Assembly (NCBI GenBank): GCA_017610275.1
Contig: JAFCCI010000002.1
Coordinates: 1 to 41,337, forward strand
DNA length: 41,337 bases
Direction of reading: 5' to 3'
Origin: Candidatus Woesearchaeota archaeon
GTDB lineage: Archaea > Nanobdellota > Nanobdellia > Woesearchaeales > CG1-02-33-12
Numbering within the stretch: the first letter of the stretch is position 1; each line of letters begins with the position of its first letter. Positions 1-17,708 of this stretch are shown piece after piece. The position numbers and the translations under genes are program-made. The notes below the pieces were generated by a model. It was given only the letters and a program-made list of their open reading frames with translations. It did not search any database and had not been told where the DNA came from.

Positions 1-364
1 AGACACAATAAGAGTATCACTTACGACTAATCCTGTTGATGAAGTCAGAGCTGGAATTGAGATTTTGAATTCCCTTAACATAAGAAAAGGCAGAACAATA
101 ATTTCATGCCCTGGTTGCGGCAGAACAGAAATAGATTTAATTGGATTAACAAAGAACATTGAACAGGCAACAGCACACATAAAAAAACCAATTAAGATAG
201 CTGTTATGGGTTGTGCTGTCAATGGGCCAGGAGAGGCAAAAGAGGCTGATGTTGGTGTTGCTGGTGCAAAAGACTTTGGAATAATCTTCAGAAAGGGAAG
301 GGTTGTTAAGAAGGTAAAGAAAGATAAGATTCTTGAAGCGTTATTAGATGAAATAAGCAAATAG
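1..364 (+). CDS. ispG: HMBPP synthase IspG, 5'-truncated by the window edge
   Basis: The frame is open from position 2 (DTIRVSLT...). It contains ISCPGCGR and VMGCAVNGPGEA, the IspG [4Fe-4S] ligand motifs. Confidence 0.96.
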   Translation, partial: DTIRVSLTTNPVDEVRAGIEILNSLNIRKGRTIISCPGCGRTEIDLIGLTKNIEQATAHIKKPIKIAVMGCAVNGPGEAKEADVGVAGAKDFGIIFRKGRVVKKVKKDKILEALLDEISK

Positions 365-373
365 GTAGATTAT

Positions 374-1063
374 ATGAAAACAACAGCAATAATACTAGCA
401 GCAGGAAAGGCAAAAAGAATGATGACCCATAAAAATAAACTCTTCTTAGAGCTGCGAAAACCAATCTTAATACATTCAATAGAGGCATTTGAAAACCACA
501 AATTAATCAATGAGATAATAATTGTTGTAAACAAAAAGGATTTAGAAGCTTGCAGCAAGATTGTTGAAAAAAATATATTTAAAAAAATAAAAAAAATAAT
601 GGTTGGGGGTGAAACAAGGCAGCAGTCATCATACAATGGTGTTATGGAAGCAGATTCTGATATTATCCTTATTCATGATGGGGCAAGACCGCTTGTAACA
701 GAGGATTCCATAACAAACTCAATCAGGGACTCCTTAAATTATGGAGCTTCTGTTGTTGCAGTACCTCTAAAGGAAACTGTAAAAAAGATTGATAACTGTT
801 TTGTTCAAAACACCCTTGACAGAGATGCATTATGGGTTGCCCAAACCCCACAAACATTCAGGGCAGATATTATTAAAGAGGCGCATGAAACAGCAAAAAG
901 GGATGGTTTTTTTGGAAAAGATGATTCTTCATTAGTTGAAAGAATAGGTTATAAGGTTAGGATATGCAGGGGGCATTATGAAAATTTAAAGATAACAACA
1001 CCAGATGATTTGGTAATAGCAAAGCATATATTTAAGAAAAATAATGGTGATTATTATGATTAG
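374..1063 (+). CDS. ispD: 2-C-methyl-D-erythritol 4-phosphate cytidylyltransferase
   Basis: Motifs ILAAG..KRM, GGETRQQS, IHDGARP, QTPQ and KITTPDDL; MEP operon context. Confidence 0.96.
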   Translation: MKTTAIILAAGKAKRMMTHKNKLFLELRKPILIHSIEAFENHKLINEIIIVVNKKDLEACSKIVEKNIFKKIKKIMVGGETRQQSSYNGVMEADSDIILIHDGARPLVTEDSITNSIRDSLNYGASVVAVPLKETVKKIDNCFVQNTLDRDALWVAQTPQTFRADIIKEAHETAKRDGFFGKDDSSLVERIGYKVRICRGHYENLKITTPDDLVIAKHIFKKNNGDYYD

Positions 1064-1535
1064 GGTTGGTATTGGCCAGGATTCTCATAGATTTATAATA
1101 AAAGACCAAAAAAGCCTTGTTCTTGGTGGTGTAATAATCCCTGATGAAAAGGGCTTAGAAGGAAATTCTGATGGTGATGTTGTGCTGCATGCTATTTTCA
1201 ATGCCCTTAGCCAGGCTGTTGGCAAAAGATCAATAGGTGTCTATTCTGATAAGATGTGCAGAGAAGGAATTAAAGACAGCAGAAAATACCTAAAAGTGGC
1301 ATTGAAGATGGTCAAAGACACTGGTTACAGGGTAAATAATATTGGTGTGATGATTGAGGCAAAAAAACCAAGAATTGAGCCATATGCTGATGATATGAAA
1401 AAGAGCATAGCAGGTATATTAATGATAACACAGGACATGATTGGCATAACAGCCACTTCTGGCGAGGGTCTTACTGCCTTTGGCAGAGGCATGGGAATAC
1501 AGGTATTTGCAATAGCAACTGTTATTAGGTGTTAA
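1056..1535 (+). CDS. ispF: 2-C-methyl-D-erythritol 2,4-cyclodiphosphate synthase
   Basis: MIRVGIGQDSHR (DxH metal motif), SDGDVVLHA, ATSGEGL. Start moved to ATG 1056, 5 nt after a GGTGA RBS. Confidence 0.95.
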   Translation: MIRVGIGQDSHRFIIKDQKSLVLGGVIIPDEKGLEGNSDGDVVLHAIFNALSQAVGKRSIGVYSDKMCREGIKDSRKYLKVALKMVKDTGYRVNNIGVMIEAKKPRIEPYADDMKKSIAGILMITQDMIGITATSGEGLTAFGRGMGIQVFAIATVIRC

Positions 1536-1539
1536 TATA

Positions 1540-2406
1540 ATGGAAATAATCCAAAAGGCATATGCCAAAATCAACCTTTCCTTGGATATCATTAAGAGGA
1601 TTTCTTCTGGATATCATAAAATAGAATTTGTTATACAGGAACTTGAGCTGCATGATATAATTAAAATAAAGAAAATAGAGAAAGGAATCAAACTTAATTG
1701 CAATACTAATATTTGTCCAGCTAATGAAAACCTTGCTTACAAAGCAGCAGAGCTTCTTATTAAAAAATTTAAAATAAACAATGGTGTTGAAATAACTATT
1801 GAGAAGAATATCCCTATTGCATCTGGTCTTGGCGGAGGAAGTTCAGATGCTGCTGCAACATTAAAAGGCATGAATAAGCTCTTTAACCTAAATTTATCAG
1901 AGGAGGAATTAATTGAAATATCTGGCGATATTGGCATGGATGTTCCATTCTTTATTCTTGGCAGCACGGTTCACGTAACTGGCCGGGGGGAAAATGTCAA
2001 AAGAATAGAAACCATGCCCAATAACATTTACTTTGTTCTGGCAAAACCAAAGTTTAGTATTTCAACAGAATATGCTTATAATAATATTGATTATGAAAAA
2101 ACAGGCAAGCAGCTAAAAACAGCTGAGATGATTAATACAATCATGGAAAAAGATATTAAAAAAATTGCAGAGAATATGCATAATGATTTTGAATATTCTA
2201 CCTTTAGGGAATATCCAATTATTAATGAAATTAAGCAAAAAATGATAGAAAATAAAGCATTAAATGCACTGATGTCTGGCTCTGGCCCAACTGTTTTTGG
2301 GATAACCAAAGAGAAAGCTGTTGCAGAAAACATATGTAACAGTTTAAAAGAAGACCCTTATTTTAAGAAAAATATTGAGTTTGTTTGTGTAACACAAACA
2401 AGGTGA
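1540..2406 (+). CDS. ispE: 4-diphosphocytidyl-2-C-methyl-D-erythritol kinase (GHMP family)
   Basis: AKINLSL, IPIASGLGGGSSDAA (GHMP motif), MSGSGPTVF. Confidence 0.96.
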   Translation: MEIIQKAYAKINLSLDIIKRISSGYHKIEFVIQELELHDIIKIKKIEKGIKLNCNTNICPANENLAYKAAELLIKKFKINNGVEITIEKNIPIASGLGGGSSDAAATLKGMNKLFNLNLSEEELIEISGDIGMDVPFFILGSTVHVTGRGENVKRIETMPNNIYFVLAKPKFSISTEYAYNNIDYEKTGKQLKTAEMINTIMEKDIKKIAENMHNDFEYSTFREYPIINEIKQKMIENKALNALMSGSGPTVFGITKEKAVAENICNSLKEDPYFKKNIEFVCVTQTR

Positions 2407-2410
2407 AATT

Positions 2411-3217
2411 ATGAAAGTTATTTGTGCAGAAAACATGGGATTTTGTTCTGGAGTCAAGAGGGCATTGGATATGGTTTTAAATGAAAGAAATGCTTATACA
2501 TTAGGGCAATTAATACATAATCCACAGGTTGTTGAACTTCTTGAGAAAAAAGGAATTAAAGTTGTTAATTCAGTTGATGAAGCTGATAGAACCTTGATTA
2601 TAACTGCTCATGGGACACCAAAATCAAATATTGAAAAAGCAAAGAAGAAGGAATTAAGAATAATTGATACAACTTGCCCCCTTGTAAAAAGGGTTCATGA
2701 GCTTGCTGTGGAGTTTGACAAAAAAGAATACAAAATAATTTTATTGGGTGATAAGGAACACCAGGAAGTTAAGGGGACTGCAAGTAATGCAAAAGATGTT
2801 ACAATTATAAGTTCTGATGAAGAAGCAAGCAAAATGAAGTTGGATAAGGCTTGTTTCCTGTCCCAAACAACGCAGTCATTAGAAAAATTTAAAGAAATTG
2901 CTGATATATTAAAGAAAAATATTCCTGAACTGAAAATTTTTAATACAATATGTGATGCTACAAAGAAAAGGCAGGATTCAGCTATGAATCTTGCTAAAAA
3001 GGTTGATTTAATGATTATTATTGGCGGTTATAACAGTGCTAATACAAAAAGATTAAAGGAAATATGCAACAAGATAGTTGAGACAAAACACATCGAAAAA
3101 GCTGATGAAATTGATTTTGAATGGTTTAAAGATAAAAAAATAGTTGGATTGACAGCCGGAGCATCAACACCTGATCAGGTAATTAAGAGAGTTAAAGATA
3201 GAATAGAAAAGTATTAA
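2411..3217 (+). CDS. ispH: HMBPP reductase IspH/LytB
   Basis: Three cluster cysteines (GFCSGV, TTCPLV, TICDAT), plus HNP, SQTT, SANT and TAGASTP. Confidence 0.97.
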   Translation: MKVICAENMGFCSGVKRALDMVLNERNAYTLGQLIHNPQVVELLEKKGIKVVNSVDEADRTLIITAHGTPKSNIEKAKKKELRIIDTTCPLVKRVHELAVEFDKKEYKIILLGDKEHQEVKGTASNAKDVTIISSDEEASKMKLDKACFLSQTTQSLEKFKEIADILKKNIPELKIFNTICDATKKRQDSAMNLAKKVDLMIIIGGYNSANTKRLKEICNKIVETKHIEKADEIDFEWFKDKKIVGLTAGASTPDQVIKRVKDRIEKY

Positions 3218-3218
3218 T

Positions 3219-3917
3219 TTATTTCCCGAAGCGCCTGTCCCTGTTTTTGTATTCTTCAATTACTTTTATTAGGTCTTCTTTTTCAAACTCAGGCCAAGCC
3301 TTTTCAAGAAAAAACCATTCTGAATATATTGACTGCCATGGCAGAAAGTTGCTTGTTCTTCTATCGCCGCCAGTCCTTATTATGAGATCTGGCTCTGTAT
3401 TCAAGTAAAGGTTTTCTGAGAATGTTTCTTCATTAATATTCTTTATCTCCAACTCTTTGTTCTCAACTTTTTCAGCAACCTTTTTCACAGCATCAATAAT
3501 TTCTTCCCTTCCGCCATATGCAAGGGCAATGTTAATTTTGTAATCATTATAATCCTTAGTTAAGTCAATAACTTTTTTTATTTTTTCCTGCACCTTTTCT
3601 GGGAACAAGTAATACCTGCCAATTATATTTATTCTTATCTTATCTTTATGAATATCTTCGTTTGTTGATACTTCATTAAATCCTTTTTCAAAGAGATTCA
3701 TAAGATAGTCAAATTCTTTTTTGGGTCTGTTGAAGTTCTGCATAGAGAAACAGTAAAGTGTTATCTCCTTAATTTCTAGTTCCTTGCACCATTTAAACAG
3801 TTTTTTAATCTTTTTAAAGCCTAATTCATGGCCTTTCCATGGCTCTAGCATAAGCCTTTTTGCAAAGCGCCTGTTCCCATCTAAAACAATGCCTATATGC
3901 TCTGGATTCTTGTTCAT
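3219..3917 (-). CDS. uppS: cis-prenyltransferase (polyprenyl diphosphate synthase)
   Basis: PEHIGIVLDGNRRFA, FSMQNFNRP, YGGREEI, PDLIIRTGG..RTSNFL and C-terminal RRFGK. Confidence 0.96.
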   Translation of the reverse strand: MNKNPEHIGIVLDGNRRFAKRLMLEPWKGHELGFKKIKKLFKWCKELEIKEITLYCFSMQNFNRPKKEFDYLMNLFEKGFNEVSTNEDIHKDKIRINIIGRYYLFPEKVQEKIKKVIDLTKDYNDYKINIALAYGGREEIIDAVKKVAEKVENKELEIKNINEETFSENLYLNTEPDLIIRTGGDRRTSNFLPWQSIYSEWFFLEKAWPEFEKEDLIKVIEEYKNRDRRFGK

Positions 3918-3970: not shown

Positions 3971-5323
3971 TTAGTTTTTAATAAAAAAATTTATTTTATT
4001 TATGAGATTATTTGTTCTTTCTAGACCTTTCTGATAACCTAAGAGTTCATACCTATTTTTTATCATTGCCAATGGATTTTTTATAAGATAGTTGAGTCTT
4101 ATATCAGCACCTTTAATTCTTCCTGTTTTTTCTCCATATGCAATTTCTTCTTCATATTGACTGAGTTCTTGGTTAATCATTCCAACAGCATAGTTGAACT
4201 TATTATTTATCTCAAAATTAAGTTTATTTATTTTGGCAGTGTATTCATTAATTTGTTCTTCAAGCCTTTTTTCACTTTTCCAGTTGTTATAATTTTTTAT
4301 TTGCATTGTTTTTGCTTTAATTTCCTTGATTAATGATAATTCCTTATTTTGAAGTCCAAGATTAAGCAATGGATCAAGCTGCCTTTGTAAACTCTTAACC
4401 TTATATTTATCCTTGTTGATATTACCCTTTACATTTTCCAGGAGTATAAAGTAATCCTGTTTTTTCTTGTTTATTTGCTCTTCAATCTTATTCAGTTCTG
4501 AAAGCATCTTTGTGTTTCTAAAGCAGCTATACAAATACCTTAGGCTATTGTTCTTTGATATTAAATCTTCAAGCTTTTCCATGGTTCCGGGCTTTTCCCA
4601 GTTGTTAGCACGAAAAATGTTATTTACTAGTTTAAATTTAGTGTCTATTTTTTTTATTTCAGAATTTATTTTCTTTTTTGTATTTTCTTTAAGATTAACT
4701 ACCTGATTAAGAAGCAGCGTAATATCCTCCTTAAAGTAATTGTCATTTTGAAGTATCTGCATCTTTTCTGTTTCGGAATCAAGTTTCTCAATCATATCAT
4801 AAATCCTGTCTATTTTCTGTTTTGTGATATTTCCATTGAAGGTTATTTCAACAAGATTTTTGTTTTTTTGAATTTTTTCATTTAATTGGGTTTTTTCATG
4901 AATAAAATTAATTAATTGTTCACTGTTTTTAATATATTTTTTTTGAAAGTGTATTATTTCTCCTTTTTCAGCTATAGAATCAAAATTTTCATCAAACTTT
5001 TTGTTGAATTCAATTATTTTATTTAAGTTGTAAGAGTCATTGCATATCTTTTCTGCTATTGTTTCAAATGTCTCACCTTCCATTACCTGGTAATATCTTG
5101 AACTTTCAAATAAGATGTCCTGTTTCCTCTTAACTTTATAAGCTTCAACAGAACCATAACCAATAGATGTAATTATTAATAAACCAATAATTGCTTGTTT
5201 AATTTTTTTCTTAATAGAATTTATTTTTGACCCTTCATCATTTATCTTATTGCTTATTTTTCTGTCTAAATCATTAAATTTTGATTCAGTGTCCATTATG
5301 AGGCTTTCAAGTTTTGATTCCAT
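3971..5323 (-). CDS. Single-pass membrane protein with LysM domain and long coiled coil
   Basis: TM helix AIIGLLIITSIGYG; LysM-like YYQVMEGETFETIAEK...IIEFN; heptad-rich remainder. Confidence 0.7.
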   Translation of the reverse strand: MESKLESLIMDTESKFNDLDRKISNKINDEGSKINSIKKKIKQAIIGLLIITSIGYGSVEAYKVKRKQDILFESSRYYQVMEGETFETIAEKICNDSYNLNKIIEFNKKFDENFDSIAEKGEIIHFQKKYIKNSEQLINFIHEKTQLNEKIQKNKNLVEITFNGNITKQKIDRIYDMIEKLDSETEKMQILQNDNYFKEDITLLLNQVVNLKENTKKKINSEIKKIDTKFKLVNNIFRANNWEKPGTMEKLEDLISKNNSLRYLYSCFRNTKMLSELNKIEEQINKKKQDYFILLENVKGNINKDKYKVKSLQRQLDPLLNLGLQNKELSLIKEIKAKTMQIKNYNNWKSEKRLEEQINEYTAKINKLNFEINNKFNYAVGMINQELSQYEEEIAYGEKTGRIKGADIRLNYLIKNPLAMIKNRYELLGYQKGLERTNNLINKINFFIKN

Positions 5324-6323: not shown

Positions 6324-7010
6324 TTACGATTTTCCATTTCTCCAGTAAATAAAATTTTCAGTGATTTCATTATCATCTAAAACCTTATATTTTCTATGAT
6401 GAATATTAAACTTGTTATAAGCAGGATCAACAAGAATAGGATTATTTTGGACATAAACAACAGCACATCCATGATTAACTTTTTTGTTATCACAATCAAC
6501 CTTAACACTTGCATACTTTGACTTTAGCCCTGCTGCCCGCGCCATTGTTATATAGAGAAAAGCCATCTCTCCGCAAATCCCTAATTTATTTTCTAAAGTT
6601 TCCTTTGAGTTTTGATATCTATTGTTATTCCTTAAATTATCATACTCTATATTTTGGTGTATCCAATTAAATATTCTTTTGGCTTTTTCCTCATCATCCT
6701 TTATATTAGTAGTATAATTCTTAATTATTTTTACAAGTTCAGAGTTTATTATAAAAGGGTTTTCAATGCTTTTATCAGCTAATAAAACATTATATCCCTT
6801 GGTAATATTATTAAGATTAAAATATGGAACAGATGGAACTTTATACTCTTTTTTGATTTTTTCAATGAGATATGTATTTTGATTATTCTTCCTAATATTT
6901 TTCAACTTATCTTCTGAATTCTTTCTTTTAATTTTGTTTAGAAGGTCATCACTATTTTTTCTCTGTGTTTTTCTTATGACTTTCCCATTTATTATTTCCC
7001 ACAAATTCAT
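6324..7010 (-). CDS. Transglutaminase-like (Cys-His-Asp) domain protein
   Basis: IFNWIHQNIEYD, GICGEMA, HGCAVV and VDPA give the transglutaminase-core triad. ATG 7010 lies just after the upstream gene's stop. Confidence 0.85.
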   Translation of the reverse strand: MNLWEIINGKVIRKTQRKNSDDLLNKIKRKNSEDKLKNIRKNNQNTYLIEKIKKEYKVPSVPYFNLNNITKGYNVLLADKSIENPFIINSELVKIIKNYTTNIKDDEEKAKRIFNWIHQNIEYDNLRNNNRYQNSKETLENKLGICGEMAFLYITMARAAGLKSKYASVKVDCDNKKVNHGCAVVYVQNNPILVDPAYNKFNIHHRKYKVLDDNEITENFIYWRNGKS

Positions 7011-7011
7011 T

Positions 7012-9276
7012 TTAACCTGAAGCATCGTAGAAAATTTTGTTGAATTCTTTTTGGAGTTGAGGGCTTAATTTGGATATATCATCAGAAAGAGTCTTACTCA
7101 ATTCAATTTTGGTATTGTCTTTAATTTTGTATTGGTCTTTTAGTTCATATGGTTTAAGAGAGCCCTTAGTTCCAGCATTTTTCAATGATCCTATATTGTA
7201 TTTTGTTCCAAACTCCCTAATCTTTTGCTGCCTGTTTTTTTGATTTTGATTACTTGCTGAGCTTTCATTAGCTGCATAAACTAATTCCCATAACCCTGGA
7301 TTTCCAGTTTCCTCATCCATAACCCCCCAAAGGGTATCTCCTTTTTGAATTACATACTCCCTTTTGTTATCTTGATTATTTATAGCTGTTTTGCCAATAT
7401 GCTGAGTGATATCCTCCCTAGTATAATTTACTTTGTTACCAGGATTGTAAACAACTAAAGGAATATTTTCTCTTTCTATAATCTGCTCTGCTTTTTTAGT
7501 TGACTGGATATCTTTAATTGAATTAATTCGCTTATGATTAGCATACATAAGTGATCCTGCCCCAATTGCAAGGGATAATACTCCTATAAGACCAATTTTC
7601 CAGTATTTTTTCACAGTCCTTTTTATGAAACTTTTTGTTTTTACAGAATAATCTCTCAAGGTGTTACTTATATAATTGAGTGGATTATATTTGATTATAT
7701 TTGGCGGCTCTTTTTTATTATTTTTTCTTCTCCAGTTCACATTATTTCCATTATTTTCATATTTATGAAGGATCCTGTAAAGTGTAGATGTGCTGAATTT
7801 TTTCTCTGGCTCATTTTCCCGCCTGTTTTTATTTAACTCACTGCGTAAATTCTTAACCTTAACATTTGTGTTATTATACAAATTAATAATATCTGCTTTA
7901 TACTCATCAGGAATCTTATTTGCTCTTTTTTCTATATTATAACCATTATTTTCTGCTTCCCTTAGAATTTTGTCAAGAGTATAATTATTGATATTATATT
8001 TGCTGCATATCTGTTTTCTGGTTAATTCTTTATAATTGTTATACTTATCTATAATCCCCTCTAGGTTATTATGCGGAGTTCTATGTACAACTTCATTTAT
8101 TTGAGGCTCAATAGTCTTTTTCTCTTCAGCTGAATTGTTTAATTTATTATCATATATTATTGCTGGCAATTGTTTTATATGTTCAGTTGGAGTCTCTTTT
8201 TTATATATATTCTTTTGTTCTTCACCTTTGTCTTTTAGCTTTTCTTCAGGAGTTTTTGTTATTATTTCTTCTAAGTTTTTATTCACTTCCTCATTTTTTT
8301 CAGAAGGCTTAACCACAATCATATTAAAATTATTAACCCTTGTTTCTACTCCACTTATGATTTTTCTTAATTCATAGTCTAATACTTTTCTAGTTGGAAG
8401 CTTTCCGTTATGGTGAACCCTTTTTGATACATGATCAACTAATTTTTTATAGTCTTCAAATTGAACGTTTCCATCATCTATAACCTCTAGAGCAACATCT
8501 TTTCCTTTTACATAATTTATTTTTTCATCTCCCTTCCCTTTATAAGAAACTTCTAAGTAAGGTTGTATATTTTTGCTGTTGGTTACCATGCTATAAGCAT
8601 ATGAAATTTTTATTGGGTCAGCTTTTTCAACTTTGGCTATTTTAACATCCTTAAGAAGAGGTATAATCTCTGAATTAATCTTATCTATTGACAACCTGAA
8701 AGAAGGACTATTGTTATTATTTTGATTTATTAATAAATAATTTTTACCATCTTTATTAGAATAATTTAAGTTATAACCTCCTTCCAAATTGTCTATATCA
8801 ACGAAATTGTCTATAGTAATTTTATTATTAGGGAACACACTATAAGAAACTCCTTTAAAATTTTCTCTGTCATCTGGAGAATGAAAAGGTCTATGATCCA
8901 GTCCATGGCTATGCCACCAGCCTATTATTTTAGACCCTCTTCTCTGAATTTTTTTGAATTCATTCATCTCAGAAGATGGATCACCAATACATTTTGAAGA
9001 TGTAACAGATTGGTTATGAGCTAAATATATATCATTAACAACATCTTTATTGGTTCCTTCTGGCGCAATTAAATAACCCATGGCTTCTACTGATTCATTA
9101 AATAATATTGGTGCTATCGTAGAATAAAAGTTTGCCTTTAATAAAGCACTTTTTTTTATTTTTAATTTTTTAATTAAATTATTATTATTATTATTATTTG
9201 AGTTTAGAGTACTATTTAAGTTGAAATGCTCTTCTTTTTTTAAAAGTAATTTCCTTATTTTATTTTTTATTGGCAT
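7012..9276 (-). CDS. JAB/MPN+ metalloisopeptidase - HTH-like repeats - TM helix - LysM fusion
   Basis: EAMGYL...GWWHSHGLDHRPFHSPDD (JAMM motif); LTRKQICSKYNINNYTLDKIL and FSTSTLYRILHKY (HTH-like); TM WKIGLIGVLSLAIGAGSLMYA; YVIQKGDTLW (LysM). Confidence 0.8.
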   Translation of the reverse strand: MPIKNKIRKLLLKKEEHFNLNSTLNSNNNNNNNLIKKLKIKKSALLKANFYSTIAPILFNESVEAMGYLIAPEGTNKDVVNDIYLAHNQSVTSSKCIGDPSSEMNEFKKIQRRGSKIIGWWHSHGLDHRPFHSPDDRENFKGVSYSVFPNNKITIDNFVDIDNLEGGYNLNYSNKDGKNYLLINQNNNNSPSFRLSIDKINSEIIPLLKDVKIAKVEKADPIKISYAYSMVTNSKNIQPYLEVSYKGKGDEKINYVKGKDVALEVIDDGNVQFEDYKKLVDHVSKRVHHNGKLPTRKVLDYELRKIISGVETRVNNFNMIVVKPSEKNEEVNKNLEEIITKTPEEKLKDKGEEQKNIYKKETPTEHIKQLPAIIYDNKLNNSAEEKKTIEPQINEVVHRTPHNNLEGIIDKYNNYKELTRKQICSKYNINNYTLDKILREAENNGYNIEKRANKIPDEYKADIINLYNNTNVKVKNLRSELNKNRRENEPEKKFSTSTLYRILHKYENNGNNVNWRRKNNKKEPPNIIKYNPLNYISNTLRDYSVKTKSFIKRTVKKYWKIGLIGVLSLAIGAGSLMYANHKRINSIKDIQSTKKAEQIIERENIPLVVYNPGNKVNYTREDITQHIGKTAINNQDNKREYVIQKGDTLWGVMDEETGNPGLWELVYAANESSASNQNQKNRQQKIREFGTKYNIGSLKNAGTKGSLKPYELKDQYKIKDNTKIELSKTLSDDISKLSPQLQKEFNKIFYDASG

Positions 9277-9277
9277 T

Positions 9278-10789
9278 TTATTTCTTATAAAAATCTTGGC
9301 TGCAAGGACAACCCTTTCTTGGATTTCTTATATGATTTCCTAAGATAATTCGATTAGCTGAAAGAGAATTATAGTATATACTATCCCTTATTGTAAAACC
9401 ATAAACTTCTGGGTAAAATATTTTCTTGACTTCTCCAACAATCATTGCACTAATTATCTGGTTTGACATAACAACACTTGGATCATGGTTATCTGCAATA
9501 CAACTAGTCGGGGTAATATCATTTTCTTTAGCCTCCTTTTGTGCCAGTAAATACACATTCTTATGGCAATCTATACAAGCAGTTTTTCCAGGATTATATA
9601 CACTAACCTGTCCTGAAAAAGGTTCTGTTCCTGCATCTATATATGGAATCTTATTTTTTACAGCTATTTTATTAATAAAAGCCCTAGTGGTAAAAGTATC
9701 GACTCCCCCTATAATTAAATCACAATTAAGTTTTAGAAGTTCTGACTCACCGATAAGTTTTACCCCTTGGCTTCTTTCATTTTCATTAAGATATTCACCT
9801 ACCTTTCCATATAATCCTTTAATATTAATATTAGGGTTTATGTTCTTCAAAGCTTTAGAAAGCACGTCTACTTTTCTTTTGCCTATATTATTTTCAAAAT
9901 TATAAAGAATTTGTCGATTTGGATTAGTAGCATCTACTTCATCCATATCAATCATATATATTTGATTTATTCCTAAAAGGGATAATCCTAAACCAACAAA
10001 ATTTCCTACTGCTCCTGCACCTATCATTACAATTTTTTTATCCTTAAATAAATCTTTTTCATTAAGATAACAGTCAAAATTAAGAGTTATGTCTGATTTG
10101 TCCTCAAATCTTTTATTTGATAATAAATTATAAGTTACTGCTTTTTTTAGTAATTTATCATTTGGTTTTAATTTAAGAATAGATTTTCTAATCTCTTCTG
10201 TAGCCAATCCACCAATGAGCCCATTAGGTATGTTTCCCTGTTTGGAGTTTTCAAAATCTAAAAATAAATAATCTTCTATAGTTTTTGAATTATTGTTTTT
10301 TGATAAAAGGATTTTTTCTACTTGATTCATTGGTTCATAAACCATTATCTTTCCTTTGTTTTCGCTTGTAGAAGCAGTAATTAAAGGTATTCTTAACCTA
10401 TCTGAAAGTTTTAGACTATTCAATTTTGAGCTCGGTTTGTTTGTAAGATCAACTAAAACATTTGGTTTTCCTATTAAATCATAAAAAGGCTCAGAATGTA
10501 TGCCCAACACATTAATATTTTCATTCATCTGAGAGATTATTTTTTCAAGGTGCTTAACCTTACTTATTTTTTCCTTTTTTTTATAGTAGTTAAAAAAAAG
10601 AAATTCATTAATGTCATTGTGATAATAGTTATTATCAATAATTCTTATATTTCCAACTTGCAATCCTGTAAGATTAGCTAAAACAAAATTACATAAAGAA
10701 CCAGCCCCTATTATTGTTACAAGAGAACCATCTAACTTTTTTTGGTCCCAATTTGTTATTCTTTCTTGTCTATCGGTCCTTTCTGAAAT
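9278..10789 (-). CDS. E1-like activating enzyme with tandem ThiF domains (degenerate N-terminal, active C-terminal); probable ATT start
   Basis: The frame extends 42 codons upstream of TTG 10663 as ISERTDRQERITNWDQKKL..VTIIGAGSLC. The C-terminal domain has IGAGAVG, DMDEVDATNPNRQ, GVDTF, CIDC, TSC and CPC. Confidence 0.88.
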   Translation of the reverse strand: MSERTDRQERITNWDQKKLDGSLVTIIGAGSLCNFVLANLTGLQVGNIRIIDNNYYHNDINEFLFFNYYKKKEKISKVKHLEKIISQMNENINVLGIHSEPFYDLIGKPNVLVDLTNKPSSKLNSLKLSDRLRIPLITASTSENKGKIMVYEPMNQVEKILLSKNNNSKTIEDYLFLDFENSKQGNIPNGLIGGLATEEIRKSILKLKPNDKLLKKAVTYNLLSNKRFEDKSDITLNFDCYLNEKDLFKDKKIVMIGAGAVGNFVGLGLSLLGINQIYMIDMDEVDATNPNRQILYNFENNIGKRKVDVLSKALKNINPNINIKGLYGKVGEYLNENERSQGVKLIGESELLKLNCDLIIGGVDTFTTRAFINKIAVKNKIPYIDAGTEPFSGQVSVYNPGKTACIDCHKNVYLLAQKEAKENDITPTSCIADNHDPSVVMSNQIISAMIVGEVKKIFYPEVYGFTIRDSIYYNSLSANRIILGNHIRNPRKGCPCSQDFYKK

Positions 10790-11636
10790 TTATACCACCA
10801 AACAGTTTTTTCTTTCTTTTATGCATTATAAGTTTGTCATCGCTGATTAATTTTGTTTTTAGCTCTTCTAATATTCCATGGTAATCTAAAATCTCCTTAT
10901 CGGATATTATTTCTTTAAGTTTAACATCTTTTTTTATGATTACCTCCTTTTCAGGATATTTAATAGCTATCTCAGCGTAAGGAAGCATAGAATAAAAGCG
11001 ATTAAAAACAAGACTATAAGCAAAAGACACACCCCTATATTTTTTTCTTCTAATACTCTTTACCCCAAGGGTTACTAGCTTTGAAAGATTATTTACCTCT
11101 ATTTCAACATAATCTTCAAAAGGATTTGATCCCTTTACAATAAGGTATTTTTTACCATCATCTTCTTTATTATAGTTTACTTTTAGTGGACCATCCAATA
11201 ACTGAATTATTTCTCTTTTTAACGCTTTTTTATTATGTGGAAAAACTGCTAGATAAAGATTTTTGAAATTATCATCATCATCTGGTGAATGAAAAGGATG
11301 AGATTGGGCATGACTATGCCACCACCCCATTATCTTATAACCTTTATTTTCAATTTCCTTTATTGCATCCATATCAGTTCCCACCTCAGCACTATAATGT
11401 GTACTTTCTACATTCTGTTTATTTGACAAAAAAATATCTTTTACAATACAATCATCATCATTCTTTGGTGTTATAAGATAACCGCCGCACTCAAGCGGTT
11501 TCCTGAAAATCTTGCAAGCTAATGAAGAATATGCTTTTGCTTTTTTGTAAGCATAGTCAGTTATAGGTACCTCATTCAGAAAATCTTTTGTCTTATTTTT
11601 TAATTTGTTTTCTAAAATATATTTTATTTTATCCAT
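10770..11636 (-). CDS. Stand-alone JAB/MPN+ metalloisopeptidase
   Basis: ECGGYL (catalytic Glu) and GWWHSHAQSHPFHSPDD (HxH-x7-S-xx-D); GGAGGT RBS. Confidence 0.88.
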   Translation of the reverse strand: MDKIKYILENKLKNKTKDFLNEVPITDYAYKKAKAYSSLACKIFRKPLECGGYLITPKNDDDCIVKDIFLSNKQNVESTHYSAEVGTDMDAIKEIENKGYKIMGWWHSHAQSHPFHSPDDDDNFKNLYLAVFPHNKKALKREIIQLLDGPLKVNYNKEDDGKKYLIVKGSNPFEDYVEIEVNNLSKLVTLGVKSIRRKKYRGVSFAYSLVFNRFYSMLPYAEIAIKYPEKEVIIKKDVKLKEIISDKEILDYHGILEELKTKLISDDKLIMHKRKKKLFGGINFRKDR

Positions 11637-11644
11637 CTTACCTC

Positions 11645-12913
11645 CTATTTGAATTTATTTGTAACCGGAATATGTTCCCTATTCAGTTCTTCTAAACTAA
11701 TTAGATTATCCCCAAAGTTTTCTTTATTTAACACTAAATGGGGCATCAAATCACCAAAATAACCTGATCTTAAGGCTGGTTCACCAATCTCCTTTAGAAG
11801 GTAGCATACTTTTTCAGCAATCTTGCCTTTTTTATCAAATTCATTTAGTTTTTTACTTACCTCTTCTTTTCTATACTTATCACCATAACAAATTCTTTGT
11901 TCACTTACATTTTTAGTGGGAATTAAAGGATGAGAATATATATCAATTATAACTGGATAACCAACTTCAATCTTATTTTTTTTTGGTGTTAGTTCAACTC
12001 CTAACTTACATTTTTCAAATTTATAATATTCATCAGTCTTAAGCGATTTAAGGGCAAATGGTTTTTCCTTAATAAAAACATAAAAATGGTTATAACTATT
12101 TTTATTTGTTTTTAAGAAACCTATATTTCCTTCTTCATAACATCTTTTATTTACTATACTCAGAAAATTGTCTCTTTGTTTAAGCAGTTGGATTCTTTCG
12201 GTTAATTTCTGTGAGCCATAATCCGCAGCTTTAGTTATCTCAGTAAATAATAATTTTGAGTATTCATTTTCTAAATTCTTTAAGTTCTTTATGAAACTAT
12301 ATGAATAACATGAATTATTTATTTTAAATTTGTTTCTTATTTTTTGATAAAATGTTTTAGGTATTTTTTTGATTTCATATACATTACCATTAGAGATAAG
12401 TATGTTGTTTTTTATTATACCCCTTTCTAGCATGGAGTATTCCCTATTTAAAATATATTCAAAACCATCTTTAGTATTTTTATAGTTATAACTATTTTCT
12501 TTTAATTCTAAAATCTTAAGGATTTTTTTATTTAATTTTTTTTTATGATTCACTTTTTTTTTCTTTTTCTTATGGTTAACTAAAGGAAAAATTTCCCCAA
12601 CAGCAAAATTAATAAGTTCATATTCATTCTTCAATTTATTTATATCTTTTTTTATTAATTGACTTTCTTCTGATTTTGTTTTGGTTAGATTATTAAAAAT
12701 ATCTTTAAATTCATTTTCATTGTTTTTAAAATAAATCATTTCAAGAGATTTTAGAGTTTCCGATTCCTTTAGATTATATTTATTATTAAGCATATAAAAA
12801 AAGCTATTGCCCTCTTCAACCTTAGGCTCAACTGTATAAAGCCTATTGTTCACGATAAGGCAAAGCTTAGATTCTTCTGCAATACTAATAAATAAGGGTT
12901 TTGGGAGATTCAT
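11645..12913 (-). CDS. Putative E2/UBC-like conjugating protein with a duplicated N-terminal module
   Basis: C-terminal PVIIDIYSHPLIP-x8-ICYG resembles the UBC P....YHPN....IC signature. Lies between the candidate Ubl and the JAB/E1 genes. Confidence 0.5.
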   Translation of the reverse strand: MNLPKPLFISIAEESKLCLIVNNRLYTVEPKVEEGNSFFYMLNNKYNLKESETLKSLEMIYFKNNENEFKDIFNNLTKTKSEESQLIKKDINKLKNEYELINFAVGEIFPLVNHKKKKKKVNHKKKLNKKILKILELKENSYNYKNTKDGFEYILNREYSMLERGIIKNNILISNGNVYEIKKIPKTFYQKIRNKFKINNSCYSYSFIKNLKNLENEYSKLLFTEITKAADYGSQKLTERIQLLKQRDNFLSIVNKRCYEEGNIGFLKTNKNSYNHFYVFIKEKPFALKSLKTDEYYKFEKCKLGVELTPKKNKIEVGYPVIIDIYSHPLIPTKNVSEQRICYGDKYRKEEVSKKLNEFDKKGKIAEKVCYLLKEIGEPALRSGYFGDLMPHLVLNKENFGDNLISLEELNREHIPVTNKFK

Positions 12914-12914
12914 A

Positions 12915-13349
12915 TTACTTCAATAGAATATAATCCAGCCCAGAAGAACCCTCTGGTGTTACATGAACTTCCAGATCAAGTCCTTTATACACTTTTTCAT
13001 CAATAGATTTTGGTTCAAAATAATCTTTTGCTATTTCTGTTGGACTTATTAATTCTTGAGTTTCACCATTTCTATTTTGAAAATATTTGTACTCTCCATC
13101 ACTATCTAACGCTTTTATTCCTAACATTTTTTTAGGTCTTTTTGATTCTTCTAAAACGTTTTCTACACTACCCATTACTTCTTTTTCTGTTTCATTAAAA
13201 CCATTATCTTTTATTAGGTATTTTATTAAATCATTCATTGTCAAATTTGGTTCACCATACAACTTCTCACTTACATCTTTAACTATTGCATCTGTTTGTG
13301 TTATTGGACACTTTATACTTGCAATATATGTTTCTTTTTCATCTGCCAT
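12915..13349 (-). CDS. Small protein, candidate ubiquitin-like modifier (precursor with tail after PEG/SG)
   Basis: First gene of the E2-JAB-E1 operon; ends LDLEVHVTPEGSSG-LDYILLK; paralog at 16188-16607. Confidence 0.45.
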   Translation of the reverse strand: MADEKETYIASIKCPITQTDAIVKDVSEKLYGEPNLTMNDLIKYLIKDNGFNETEKEVMGSVENVLEESKRPKKMLGIKALDSDGEYKYFQNRNGETQELISPTEIAKDYFEPKSIDEKVYKGLDLEVHVTPEGSSGLDYILLK

Positions 13350-13395: not shown

Positions 13396-13436
13396 TTTTT
13401 TATATGCATTTCCGATAAAAAAGAGGTATTTTTCCG
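13396..13436 (-). promoter_or_regulatory. 41-bp island promoter element, copy 1 (32/41 identical to copy 2)
   Basis: Minus strand CGGAAAAATACCTCTTTTTTATCGGAAATGCATATAAAAAA, upstream of the Ubl-E2-JAB-E1 operon. Confidence 0.6.
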
Positions 13437-15380: not shown

Positions 15381-15421
15381 TTTTTAATAAGCATTTCCAA
15401 GAAAAAAGATGAGAATTTCCG
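15381..15421 (-). repeat. 41-bp island promoter element, copy 2
   Basis: Plus strand tttttaataagcatttccaagaaaaaagatgagaatttccg. The minus strand ends in BRE/TATA-like GAAATGCTTATTAAAAA, 23 nt before ATG 15358. Confidence 0.8.
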
Positions 15422-16187: not shown

Positions 16188-16607
16188 CTATTTTGTTCTT
16201 TCTCCATCAGGAGCAGGACAACACATAAGTTCTAAATTCAATGCCTTATACTTTATTTCGTCAAGAGTGTTATTTTTAAAATAATCTTTTGATATTTCAA
16301 GCCCAATTTTTTCTATAATTTGCCCATTCTCGTTTTTATCTAACATCTCATAATTATCCTGTCCATTAATCTTTATCAGTAACATATTATAACTCTTTCT
16401 TCCTCCTTTTATTTCATATTTTAAGGCTTTTTTTAGTTCTTTTTCCTCTTCATCAAATCCATCATCCTTTAATAAATAACCTATTAATTCGTTAATATTT
16501 AAGCTTGGGTTATCTTTTAGTTTTTTAGTTATATCTTTCATAATTGGCATATAATAATCATTATACTTTTTTACACTTGCAATATATGGTTCATCTTTCT
16601 GTTCCAT
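16188..16607 (-). CDS. Paralog of the candidate Ubl (12915-13349)
   Basis: Shares YIAS.K, KD...KL...P.L..N.LI.YL.KD.GF.E.EKE, EI.KDYF.....DE..YK.L.LE and a terminal P[DE]G plus short tail. ATG 16607 aligns with the paralog's start. Confidence 0.7.
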   Translation of the reverse strand: MEQKDEPYIASVKKYNDYYMPIMKDITKKLKDNPSLNINELIGYLLKDDGFDEEEKELKKALKYEIKGGRKSYNMLLIKINGQDNYEMLDKNENGQIIEKIGLEISKDYFKNNTLDEIKYKALNLELMCCPAPDGERTK

Positions 16608-16631
16608 TTTCACTCAAAATATAATGGGCTC

Positions 16632-16672
16632 TTTTTAATAAGCATTTCTAAGAAAAAAGATGAGAATTTCCG
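16632..16672 (-). repeat. 41-bp island promoter element, copy 3 (40/41 identical to copy 2)
   Basis: Plus strand tttttaataagcatttctaagaaaaaagatgagaatttccg, 25 nt upstream of ATG 16607. Confidence 0.8.
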
Positions 16673-16739: not shown

Positions 16740-17708
16740 TTAGTCTAATATAATTTTTGTTTCCAGCAAAGTTAATTTTCCAGAATCTAAAACTTTTAGT
16801 AATCTTGGATTCAATGAGTATATTTTATTTTTGATTTCTTTAACTTCAGGAAAATGAATTGAATGCTTTCTATTAAATTGTTTATTTAATCCATAACTTT
16901 TTAATTCATGTTTATTACAGAAAAGGATTCCTTCCCTAGTTCTATATTTAGCTTGGATTTCTAAATCTGTTGGTATTTTATTAGGGAATTTCATTGTACA
17001 TTCTCCTTCTTTTCCATCTCTAACATCTCCACAATGGTTCAGGCTTGCAAATGCGTGGCCAAATTCATGTAAAGCAGCCTGTTTTATTATTTCTCTTCCG
17101 CTATTTTTGTATCTCTTTATACTTATTATTGCCCCCTGATCGCCACCCTCTCCAATCATAAACCTATAGCCATATAATCTATCATATAAATCAAAATCAG
17201 ATAATAATATTACCTCATAGTGCGGTCTTTCATTTTGAATAGGATCTTCCTTTAAATCTTTCCAAAATACATATAAATCACATTGGCCATTATTAGATAT
17301 ATCATAATTTTTTCTTTCTGGATTAAATGATCTTTTAATATACCAGTCTATGCTTTGGTGAGGTTCATTTCCTTCATTCCAATAACCAAAACTGTGTATT
17401 GGCAAAATTTCTTTCATATTTATAGAATTTAACACTTCTTCTAATGCCTCAACAACAATTCCAAGATTTCTATCAGAAGTTCCTTTATCACATGTTACAA
17501 AAATAGGTTTAAATCTATAAAAAGGATTTATGGGTGTTTGTAATGAGAGAATTTTATTATCATATTTCACTCTTTCAATCAAGCTTTTTCCTCTCTTTCC
17601 TGCTTTTTCTATCGATTGTTTTATTGTTAGTGTTATCTTATTCCCATCATATTTAAAATTTTTTTTAGAATTTAATAATTTAATTAGTTCTGAATTATTT
17701 TCATCCAT
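16740..17708 (-). CDS. Zincin metallopeptidase, archaemetzincin-like
   Basis: HEFGHAFASLNHC followed by ECTM (Met-turn-like) and LFCNKH. Confidence 0.7.
   Translation of the reverse strand: MDENNSELIKLLNSKKNFKYDGNKITLTIKQSIEKAGKRGKSLIERVKYDNKILSLQTPINPFYRFKPIFVTCDKGTSDRNLGIVVEALEEVLNSINMKEILPIHSFGYWNEGNEPHQSIDWYIKRSFNPERKNYDISNNGQCDLYVFWKDLKEDPIQNERPHYEVILLSDFDLYDRLYGYRFMIGEGGDQGAIISIKRYKNSGREIIKQAALHEFGHAFASLNHCGDVRDGKEGECTMKFPNKIPTDLEIQAKYRTREGILFCNKHELKSYGLNKQFNRKHSIHFPEVKEIKNKIYSLNPRLLKVLDSGKLTLLETKIILD

Follow-up and report, generated by a model that had tools for sequence, protein, structure and literature searches.

Contig JAFCCI010000002.1 (assembly GCA_017610275.1), analyzed over its whole length of 41.3 kb and referred to below as the window, belongs to a 0.96-Mb genome of 75.7% completeness. 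Its guanine-plus-cytosine content is about 25–36%, and it encodes archaeal markers: the ribosomal proteins L31e and S19e, Cbf5, Dph2, and an archaeal-type ProRS. The open reading frame (ORF) at 7012..9276 on the minus strand is best read, from its sequence and a structural model, as the gene for a single-pass membrane protein of a small Nanoarchaeota (DPANN) archaeon. In this protein of 754 residues a predicted JAB/JAMM peptidase is joined to two helix-turn-helix (HTH) modules, a transmembrane (TM) helix, and a divergent LysM-like domain, and its gene directly follows that of an E1-like enzyme in a ubiquitin-like cassette. The parts of the protein are listed here in the order in which they are translated.

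7012..9276 (−): whole ORF, 754 residues; JAB, family-specific extension, linker, two HTH modules, TM helix, LysM-like domain
8827..9135 (−): JAB/JAMM metallopeptidase core, residues 48–150, from the match to PF14464 and invariant residues
8377..8826 (−): JAB-associated C-terminal extension, residues 151–300, also found in a 288-residue paralogue and many other JABs
8065..8376 (−): charged, poorly conserved linker, residues 301–404
7933..8064 (−): HTH1, three-helix bundle, residues 405–448, from an AlphaFold2 model and the alignment; mean identity 84%
7717..7932 (−): HTH2, three-helix bundle, residues 449–520, from the AlphaFold2 model; best conserved cytoplasmic part
7540..7716 (−): basic juxtamembrane helix, residues 521–557, and single TM helix, residues 558–579, from hydropathy, flank charge, and the model
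7369..7539 (−): variable outside linker, residues 580–636, modelled as disordered (predicted local distance difference test score, pLDDT, 31–45); mean identity 58%
7015..7368 (−): outside LysM-derived domain, residues 637–754, from a profile search, hhalign, and the AlphaFold2 model

Domain organization of the protein

An earlier reading of the letters alone (hereafter the sequence-only reading) had proposed the order JAB-HTH-HTH-TM-LysM for this ORF. All of these elements are present, the LysM part being divergent and the HTH call mainly fold-based. Mean identity among homologues is 84–86% in the HTH and TM parts, 75–79% in the JAB, the extension, and the LysM-like domain, and 58–69% in the linkers; because the modules are more conserved than the linkers between them, every module is under constraint. 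The ATG of the ORF lies 1 nt past the stop codon of the E1 gene. As there is no Met (no ATG) between residues 321 and 576, an internal start yielding a separate HTH-TM-LysM protein was rejected. A PDB sequence search with the single 754-residue protein returned nothing at E ≤ 1, and one with the family profile gave chance-level matches only.

The JAB core matches the Pfam family Prok-JAB (PF14464) at residues 63–145 with 27.2 bits (cut-off 25), and a genome-wide Prok-JAB search scored it at 30.9 bits, again above cut-off. The JAMM consensus comprises a catalytic Glu and the metal-binding motif H-x-H-x(7)-S-x-x-D. The corresponding residues E64, H122, H124, S133, and D136 are invariant in all 13 aligned homologues, whose members are 39–87% identical, and a JAMM-type regular expression matches 15/15 fused homologues. 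The codon of the catalytic E64 is at 9085–9087 and the H122-x-H124...S133-x-x-D136 loop at 8869–8913. The fused JAB is therefore best read, at the level of sequence, as a predicted catalytically intact JAB/JAMM zinc peptidase. Beyond the Pfam core, an extension of about 150 residues is common to many JAB proteins of 280–400 residues; the profile matched positions ~36–290 in many of the 175 hits with E ≤ 1e-10, and Pfam assigns no named domain to this extension in the JAB relatives.

The intact JAMM domain had been described as paralogous to the product of 10770..11636, a soluble JAB of 288 residues, and this description is borne out: the two align with E 2.7e-36 and 33% identity over residues 26–297, and the motifs quoted as shared occur in both sequences. 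The JAB of P0014, a fused homologue from a diverged lineage, is 44% identical to the fused JAB of the window versus 32% to the 288-residue JAB. Conservation of the fused JAB core is 75% within the window group and 42% to P0014. The term "deubiquitinase" was right as to a JAB peptidase part but is too specific, no ubiquitin-like modifier having been identified; against the NCBIfam "desampylase" model the JAB part reaches E 0.0025 and 17.7 bits, versus an equivalog cut-off of 130. One fused homologue, P0009 (762 residues), has a JAB core just 52% identical to that of the window, its other domains being 75–95% identical, and its H-x-H loop has the 7-residue spacing and a DDDD motif, as in the 288-residue paralogue. 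This suggests that P0009 is a mosaic, or that gene conversion has occurred between two JAB genes.

Between the JAB part and the HTH modules lies the charged linker that had been noted from the letters (K+R 17%, D+E 19%), with a mean identity of 69% versus 84% in the HTH modules. The AlphaFold2 model of the C-terminal half, built on an 18-sequence alignment, resolves the central region into two three-helix bundles, in agreement with the two HTH-like segments claimed for it. HTH1 has helices at 405–414, 420–426, and 431–443 (pLDDT 64–74), is confined to the window-type group, and is vestigial in P0014 and in homologues that lack the JAB part. HTH2 has helices at 457–469, 474–482, and 496–508 (pLDDT 84–87), with a recognition-type helix FSTSTLYRIL..Y..G..V.WR in which F494, S495, S497, Y500, L503, Y506, G510, W515, and R516 are invariant. 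The region is net basic (K+R 21%, D+E 13%). Pfam HTH models stay below threshold (HTH_54, 19.3 bits versus 32.3; HTH_23, 15.4 versus 24.6; HTH_28, 15.2 versus 25), and residues 417–530 match the N-terminus of IS481 transposase with E 1.3e-4, the 21.6 bits comparing with 224 for the whole transposase model. The top match in VIA-align is the bipartite DNA-binding domain of Tc3 transposase (Z 6.4, root-mean-square deviation [rmsd] 13.7 for the pair); numerous single HTH or winged-helix domains rank below it (Z 5–6.3, rmsd 2–3), and Z 5–6.4 is a range that, according to the tool itself, can reflect a common arrangement. Foldseek gave no match to the C-terminal-half model at E ≤ 1e-3, its weak matches being phage baseplate proteins, Pax6, TnsB, and DeoR. 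The best reading of the model is a bipartite HTH module of the transposase/paired type.

Soluble proteins of 227–229 residues, with an N-terminus paralogous to HTH2 and no TM segment, are encoded at three related loci (L018:6614-7297, L019:16780-17469, and L020:4639-5322). Their identity to HTH2 is 31–42%, including an FSVSTLYRIL helix, and no such paralogue was found in the 75.7% complete genome of the window.

The single TM helix claimed by the sequence-only reading falls at residues 558–579. It is the sole strongly hydrophobic segment, with a Kyte-Doolittle 19-mer maximum of 1.88 at residues 561–579, and AlphaFold2 places it in one long helix (532–578). Its N-terminal flank carries a raw K/R count of +7 versus +4 on the C-terminal side (net charge +7 versus +3). 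In 24/24 homologues the most hydrophobic 19-mer is at the equivalent site and the N-side flank is the more positive, so we predict an N-in/C-out topology. With this predicted topology and a LysM-like domain outside, the proposal of a membrane-tethered JAB peptidase holds.

The outside domain is modelled as beta-alpha-alpha, an inserted helix (~16 residues, with loops), a beta strand, and two C-terminal helices (pLDDT 73–92). The family profile matches a triple-LysM protein, P0161, at E 4.5e-12 in a library of 1.84 billion proteins; P0161 is a bona fide LysM protein (Pfam LysM E 1.6e-27). The hhalign comparison with LysM (probability 91.7%, E 7.7e-7) covers 38 columns, residues 638–675, corresponding to beta1-alpha1-alpha2 only. 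VIA-align matches the domain to a contractile-injection-system baseplate chain (9gtp_P; Z 5.6, rmsd 1.8, 56 residues, 23% identity). Neither the window protein nor its homologues matched Pfam LysM (PF01476, cut-off 20.9 bits) at E ≤ 0.1. The domain thus appears, from sequence and model, to be LysM-derived but atypical: what stands of the proposed C-terminal LysM is the homology of its first ~38 residues, and what does not is a LysM at Pfam threshold.

Distribution and origin of the fusion

The sequence-only reading would have been refuted by a fusion unique to this assembly. The fusion is not: it recurs in 12 protein clusters, in 7/13 genomes of one Nanoarchaeota family, and on many independent contigs, so that an assembly chimera was rejected. 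In a word-index search, 12 of the 14 hits were full-length homologues of 744–762 residues. A profile search of the 1.84-billion-protein library (427 hits) returned three full-length representatives, P0011, P0014, and P0019, the remaining hits being mostly JAB proteins that lack the C-terminal half. Full-length fusions occur in diverged lineages at identities as low as 25–39%. By locus, the fusion is present in 5/5 of those from genome contigs and 10/16 of those from metagenomes. Three of the loci (L003, L004, and L007) come from records titled "uncultured Methanosarcinales archaeon" and others from "Nanoarchaeota archaeon"; the contig content, with the same small-genome synteny, suggests that the record labels disagree rather than the organisms.

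The HTH-TM-LysM-like part is present in 13/13 family genomes, fused in 7 and stand-alone (309–370 residues) in 6, and is a core gene of the family. Across the order, the C-terminal module was found in 3/201 sampled genomes, all three from the same family. The core gene occurs in three configurations.

Configuration A: lipoprotein168, small78, unk358, stand-alone HTH-TM-LysM-like gene (309–370 residues), unk314, TM-LysM450; in G142, G010, G201, L022–25, L027, and L029
Configuration B: as A, with small144, unk422, and E1 (501 residues) after unk358, then JAB-HTH-TM-LysM-like (760 residues); in L026, the locus of P0014
Configuration C: as B, with two further genes, a second JAB (288 residues) between unk422 and E1 and one of transglutaminase fold following the fused gene; in the window, L003–7, L014–21, and L028

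By synteny, all three occupy one chromosomal site, with UppS/IspH on one flank and MT217/Lit/Cbf5 on the other. The locus of P0019 (genome G210) resembles configuration B and has the E1 directly upstream of the fused gene. In configuration A, the stand-alone form sits between unk358 and unk314/TM-LysM450, and the small protein, the 422-residue protein, E1, JAB, and transglutaminase are all absent at the site. Neither Prok-JAB nor ThiF occurs anywhere in two of the configuration-A genomes (93% and 97% complete), so these organisms can have no E1/JAB system other than the cassette. The architecture is best explained by in-frame fusion of the terminal cassette JAB to the core HTH-TM-LysM-like gene at an operon junction. 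A tree built from the last 300 residues places the fused P0014, on a long branch, within the stand-alone clade (99/97).

Among 144 other JAB relatives, four have a TM-like segment. One of these proteins, P0078, from a more distant Nanoarchaeota metagenome-assembled genome, combines a JAB with one TM helix and a LysM-like segment after it, and the JAB-TM-LysM-like combination is therefore recurrent. A phylum-wide search with P0078 matched 1/401 genomes, on the TM-LysM-like part only, and the C-terminal profile found no relative on the viral contigs searched. So far, the fusion is restricted to one DPANN family plus this one more distant protein.

The ubiquitin-like cassette and its surroundings

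The cassette consists of a small protein, a 422-residue possible E2, an E1 with tandem ThiF matches, and a JAB, and it lies directly upstream of the core gene in 7 genomes. Its genes in the window are listed here with the promoter element before them and the gene that follows the 754-residue ORF.

13402..13424 (−): promoter element, 23 nt, upstream of the cassette operon; further copies at 15387–15409 and 16638–16660
12915..13349 (−): 144-residue first cassette gene, candidate modifier or partner; conserved tail G-x-G-L-D/E-Y-I/L-L/I-x-K
11645..12913 (−): 422-residue cassette protein, possible E2; invariant H328-P329 ... C342 in the alignment
10770..11636 (−): second, soluble JAB, 288 residues; paralogue of the fused JAB, only in window-type genomes
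9278..10759 (−): E1-like enzyme; ThiF 168.8 bits, two ThiF matches, the N-terminal weaker and the C-terminal stronger
6324..7025 (−): transglutaminase-fold protein; PF01841 63.2 bits, directly downstream of the 754-residue ORF, only in window-type loci

The assignment of the E1 is solid as far as sequence goes: two ThiF matches (E 7e-42 and E 8e-15) lie within a single open frame of 503 residues, and the protein matches 32 PADLOC "E1-E2" (Cap2-type) models (best E 8.4e-15); the 288-residue JAB matches 11 PADLOC JAB models. In three diverged lineages (the window type, L026/P0014, and G210/P0019) the gene immediately upstream of the fused JAB is that of the E1, and at the L026 locus no JAB other than the fused one was found. 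The weaker ThiF match (E 8e-15) has its own GxGxxG motif. The E1 frame is open and conserved up to a TAA at ~10760, just inside the end of the 288-residue JAB gene, and there is no ATG, GTG, or TTG before its N-terminal ThiF part. Where the E1 homologue of L026 has an ATG, the window and 5/5 close relatives have an ATT directly after the TAA. Translation of this E1 would need a non-canonical start, or else coupling to or frameshifting from the JAB gene.

An HPN...C motif is the signature of E2s, and the invariant H328-P329 and C342 of the 422-residue protein recall it. Only residues 250–385 of its AlphaFold2 model reach pLDDT 63–85, forming a beta-meander, a loop, and two helices. Queried through the homologue P0168, it comes closest among the named Atlas families to Prok-E2_D (0.79 and 0.77), which is no more than a lead, and its top Atlas look-alikes are viral clusters (score 0.90).

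The cassette-adjacent group of 144-residue proteins shares a G-x-G followed by a 7-residue tail, and a paralogue group ends differently. One such paralogue, at 16188–16613 on the minus strand, is 39% identical and has its own copy of the promoter element; it adjoins a gene (16740–17708, minus strand) for a 322-residue protein with an HEFGH (HExxH-type) motif, and both were seen only in cassette-bearing loci. In another family of the same class, a 144-residue-family member (hhalign 98.9%) overlaps the start of a stand-alone TM-LysM-like gene (L035:699-1881, genome G374). The product of the latter gene (265 residues) is related to the C-terminal half of P0078, with a cytoplasmic part that is helical rather than HTH-like, and this genome has one ordinary ThiF, on another contig. 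From these sequence relationships, the 144-residue protein may serve the membrane protein as a partner or substrate instead of being a classical ubiquitin-like protein (Ubl). A sulfur-carrier role of the CysO/Mec+ type was rejected, the operon having no metabolic partner genes.

The promoter element, ending in GGAAATGC(A/T)TAT, has three matches in the 0.96-Mb genome, all in the island, and its reversed control has none. The copies, a repeat family designated D1, precede the cassette operon, the lipoprotein operon, and the 141-residue paralogue. Each comprises two (C/T)GGAAAT repeats 22 nt apart, adjoining a TTATTAAAAA box; the proximal GGAAAT abuts a TATA-like box and, we presume, could simply be a transcription factor B recognition element (BRE). 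CGGAAA is enriched in the window (14 copies versus 6.2 expected), and none of 100 shuffles reached 14. The element is also found upstream of the lipoprotein gene lipo168 in configurations A and B and therefore tracks the HTH-TM-LysM-like module, not the cassette, the genomes compared being related rather than independent. These sequence data are compatible with the HTH module as a regulator of the element-bearing promoters.

The core gene is best read as belonging to a fast-evolving cluster of lipoproteins and membrane proteins. The ORF of the transglutaminase-fold protein is listed from an ATG at 7025, which would overlap the end of the 754-residue gene (7008–7025). Its relatives align from residue 6–8, and another ATG lies at 7010, 1 nt past the stop of the 754-residue gene; this is the probable start. 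The last gene of the operon (3971–5323, minus strand) encodes a TM protein with a long coiled-coil-like part and a weak LysM-like NCBIfam match (E 0.0077). It has 450 residues in the window versus 685–689 in several relatives (L005, L019, L021, L026, and L013), in which residues ~153–448 occur twice, and the hhalign comparison with the C-terminal profile indicated no relation (probability 1.5%). The length of unk314 varies from 149 to 517 residues. At the left end of the window (2–3217, plus strand; 3219–3917, minus strand), IspG (partial, continued on contig C4), IspD, IspF, IspE, and IspH adjoin UppS. These Isp genes belong to the bacterial-type methylerythritol phosphate (MEP) isoprenoid pathway, here in an archaeal genome; relatives preserve the synteny of IspH and UppS, and Dxr was not found in the 75.7% complete genome.

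Possible roles and relation to known systems

The reading we tentatively prefer is that the 754-residue protein could be a membrane-anchored processing or deconjugating peptidase of the ubiquitin-like cassette. The fused JAB would then be the cassette's peptidase, held at the inner membrane face by a resident envelope protein, and maturation or removal of the modifier would take place at that face, beside the surface-protein cluster. The HTH-TM-LysM-like part would retain an older job, probably binding the three island promoters with the CGGAAAT element, or a protein partner, and an outside glycan or protein ligand might keep it at the envelope. We infer the substrate, the direction of catalysis, and the binding of DNA and ligand.

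Several results weigh against this reading. The 422-residue protein was negative in Pfam and PDB profile searches, and its E2 assignment, based on the HP...C motif, a model confident only in part, and Atlas scores under 0.9, is a lead. The candidate modifier of 144 residues has no invariant C-terminal Gly-Gly, PDB and Atlas searches returned nothing usable for it, and genome G374 (92% complete) contains a member of its family with no JAB found. In the catalytic loop of the window protein the spacer has 8 residues versus the 7 of the JAMM consensus, 7 being also the spacing in P0009 and in the 288-residue paralogue. The sub-threshold Pfam results for HTH and LysM, the common range of the VIA scores, and the null Foldseek result point the same way. 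The tree of the C-terminal module requires two or more changes to account for the fused state and does not tell gain from loss.

A fusion at an operon junction fits tethering as well as signalling. The sequence-only reading put forward the latter, a one-component transmembrane receptor in which an outside glycan would alter JAB activity or DNA binding by the HTH. Contact, for instance with a host cell wall, would in this way be linked to a ubiquitin-like switch and to transcription of the island. Single-pass receptors such as ToxR/CadC and LysM receptor kinases can signal via ligand-driven clustering, and the predicted topology, with the LysM-derived domain outside and the enzyme and HTH inside, would suit such a mechanism. 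The co-occurrence of the island-specific promoter element with the HTH module also speaks for a receptor, as does the presence of JAB, TM, and LysM-like parts together in the separate lineages of P0019 and P0078. However, long stretches on both sides of the membrane are modelled as disordered (pLDDT 31–50), including an outside linker of ~57 residues, and a ~100-residue linker of low conservation separates JAB from HTH. Gene fusion, moreover, attached the JAB to a protein that occurs without it as well, and P0019 has no evident HTH in its sequence. LysM-fold domains are also purely structural in phage and injection-system baseplates, which are the best structural matches. A receptor of this kind seems unlikely, and allosteric control of the JAB by outside glycan binding is, on our analysis, somewhat disfavored.

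Bil and CBASS Cap2-Cap3 belong with the prokaryotic E1/E2-like/JAB/Ubl operons, and the cassette might likewise be an accessory antiviral or anti-competitor conjugation system in a surface-protein hot spot, its anchored JAB meeting virus or host structures. The cassette comes and goes within one genus (present in 6/10 genomes of genus g1), its E1 and 288-residue JAB match PADLOC models as described above, and viral clusters head the Atlas look-alikes of the 422-residue protein; the published operon classes are also sporadically distributed (PMC1779556). Yet none of the PADLOC models matched the 754-residue protein itself, the locus contains no cyclase, effector, or other defence gene, and the C-terminal profile picked up no relative on the viral contigs searched. 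The promoter element common to the cassette and the resident lipoprotein operon suggests integration into a local regulon. We regard a defence role as doubtful.

The HTH pair might instead bind protein rather than DNA, as a membrane-bound scaffold to which the E1, the possible E2, or the small protein would dock. Winged-helix repeats of UFL1/DDRGK1 appear among the VIA and Foldseek matches with scores near those of DNA binders (8ohd_C, Z 6.2; 8b9x_B, Z 5.2), the 144-residue relative in G374 is paired with a TM-LysM-like protein whose cytoplasmic part is not HTH-like, and P0019 retains the JAB, TM, and LysM-like parts with no HTH evident in its sequence. The best similarities in sequence and fold are, however, to transposase-type bipartite DNA-binding domains; the region is net basic, its recognition-type helix is the most conserved cytoplasmic stretch, and the island promoters contain a unique direct-repeat element with 22-nt spacing. 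A pure scaffold seems improbable.

It is rather less to be expected that the protein is a contact-sensing switch, in which the LysM-derived domain would report a host's or the cell's own envelope glycan to a JAB that resets a ubiquitin-like mark and to an HTH that drives the three CGGAAAT promoters; if true, this would be a prokaryotic ubiquitin-like signalling pathway wired directly to the cell surface. Very unlikely is a neutral by-product of operon packing, with a JAB that is inactive or redundant with the soluble 288-residue JAB of window-type genomes and only the ancestral membrane role left: one extra residue in the catalytic loop would fit it, but the catalytic residues are invariant (13/13), the JAB core is conserved (75% in the group, 42% to P0014), the fused JAB is the sole one in the L026 locus, and the fusion is retained across lineages just 25–44% identical.

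Ubiquitin signalling is viewed as having its forerunners in prokaryotic E1/E2/JAB cassettes, several of which are antiviral; to our knowledge, the targets and cellular location of these cassettes are mostly unknown. The fusion ties the JAB of such a cassette to a core membrane protein that a host-dependent type of archaeon encodes in a fast-evolving cluster of surface genes, and so is a testable pointer to the cassette's site of action, the inner membrane face, and to its partner. The natural fused and unfused variants within one genus offer a ready comparison. Should the HTH bind the island's unique element, the stand-alone form would become a candidate for an archaeal transcription regulator bound to the membrane.

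Like the prokaryotic E1/E2-like/JAB/Ubl operons of Iyer, Burroughs, and Aravind (2006; classes 6a–6e, PMC1779556), the window cassette places a ThiF-type E1 next to a Prok-JAB, a small protein, and a Cys-bearing protein, and like them it is sporadic and accessory. In such operons the E1-like gene is fused to a JAB or lies right beside one (PMC1779556), and the position of the E1 directly upstream of the fused JAB in three lineages matches this rule. Unlike those operons, the window has a JAB that is membrane-anchored and fused to HTH, TM, and LysM-like modules, in a DPANN host, and an E1 with two ThiF matches in one frame, and its E2 and Ubl are not demonstrable by searches. No membrane-anchored JAB is described in the part of PMC1779556 consulted, and a full-text literature search, mostly at the level of abstracts, found no DPANN membrane protein of JAB-TM-LysM or JAB-HTH architecture. 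The literature thus covered likewise contained no JAB joined to HTH, TM, and LysM-like modules.

HvJAMM1, of the archaeal SAMP/UbaA/HvJAMM1 system, is soluble. As in that system (PMC4443979), an archaeal JAMM/MPN+ metalloprotease is paired here with an E1-type enzyme. In the window, by contrast, no SAMP-like beta-grasp protein was identified, and the peptidase is membrane-tethered and multi-domain.

The HTH of RodZ binds MreB, and UFL1-DDRGK1 is a membrane-anchored UFM1 ligase with winged-helix repeats. The window protein resembles RodZ and DDRGK1-UFL1 (8ohd, 8b9x) as a single-pass membrane protein with cytoplasmic HTH or winged-helix modules, which in those proteins bind protein; the structural scores are middling, and RodZ and DDRGK1-UFL1 have neither a peptidase nor a LysM. 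In BlaR1 the inside enzyme is a zinc protease, and CERK1/NFR1 carry LysM outside. With BlaR1/MecR1 and the plant LysM receptor kinases the window protein has in common an outside domain, which binds ligand in those receptors, and an inside enzyme, whose coupling would be hypothetical here, and it differs from them in enzyme class or in that their membrane domain is multi-pass. The likeness to the membrane-bound transcription regulators ToxR/CadC/TcpP, whose single chain combines a domain of DNA-binding type in the cytoplasm, one TM helix, and a sensor or anchor domain outside, holds above all for the stand-alone form of 309–370 residues; the HTH here is a transposase/paired bipartite module, not an OmpR winged helix, its DNA binding is putative, the outside domain is LysM-like, and in the fused form a JAB has been added. 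The HTH module itself, two consecutive three-helix units with a short linker, is most like those of Tc3, paired, and CENP-B (1u78_A, 6pax_A, and 1hlv_A) and the N-terminus of IS481. Unlike in the Tc3 and IS481 transposases, it comes with no transposase catalytic domain and is instead a conserved part of a core membrane protein.

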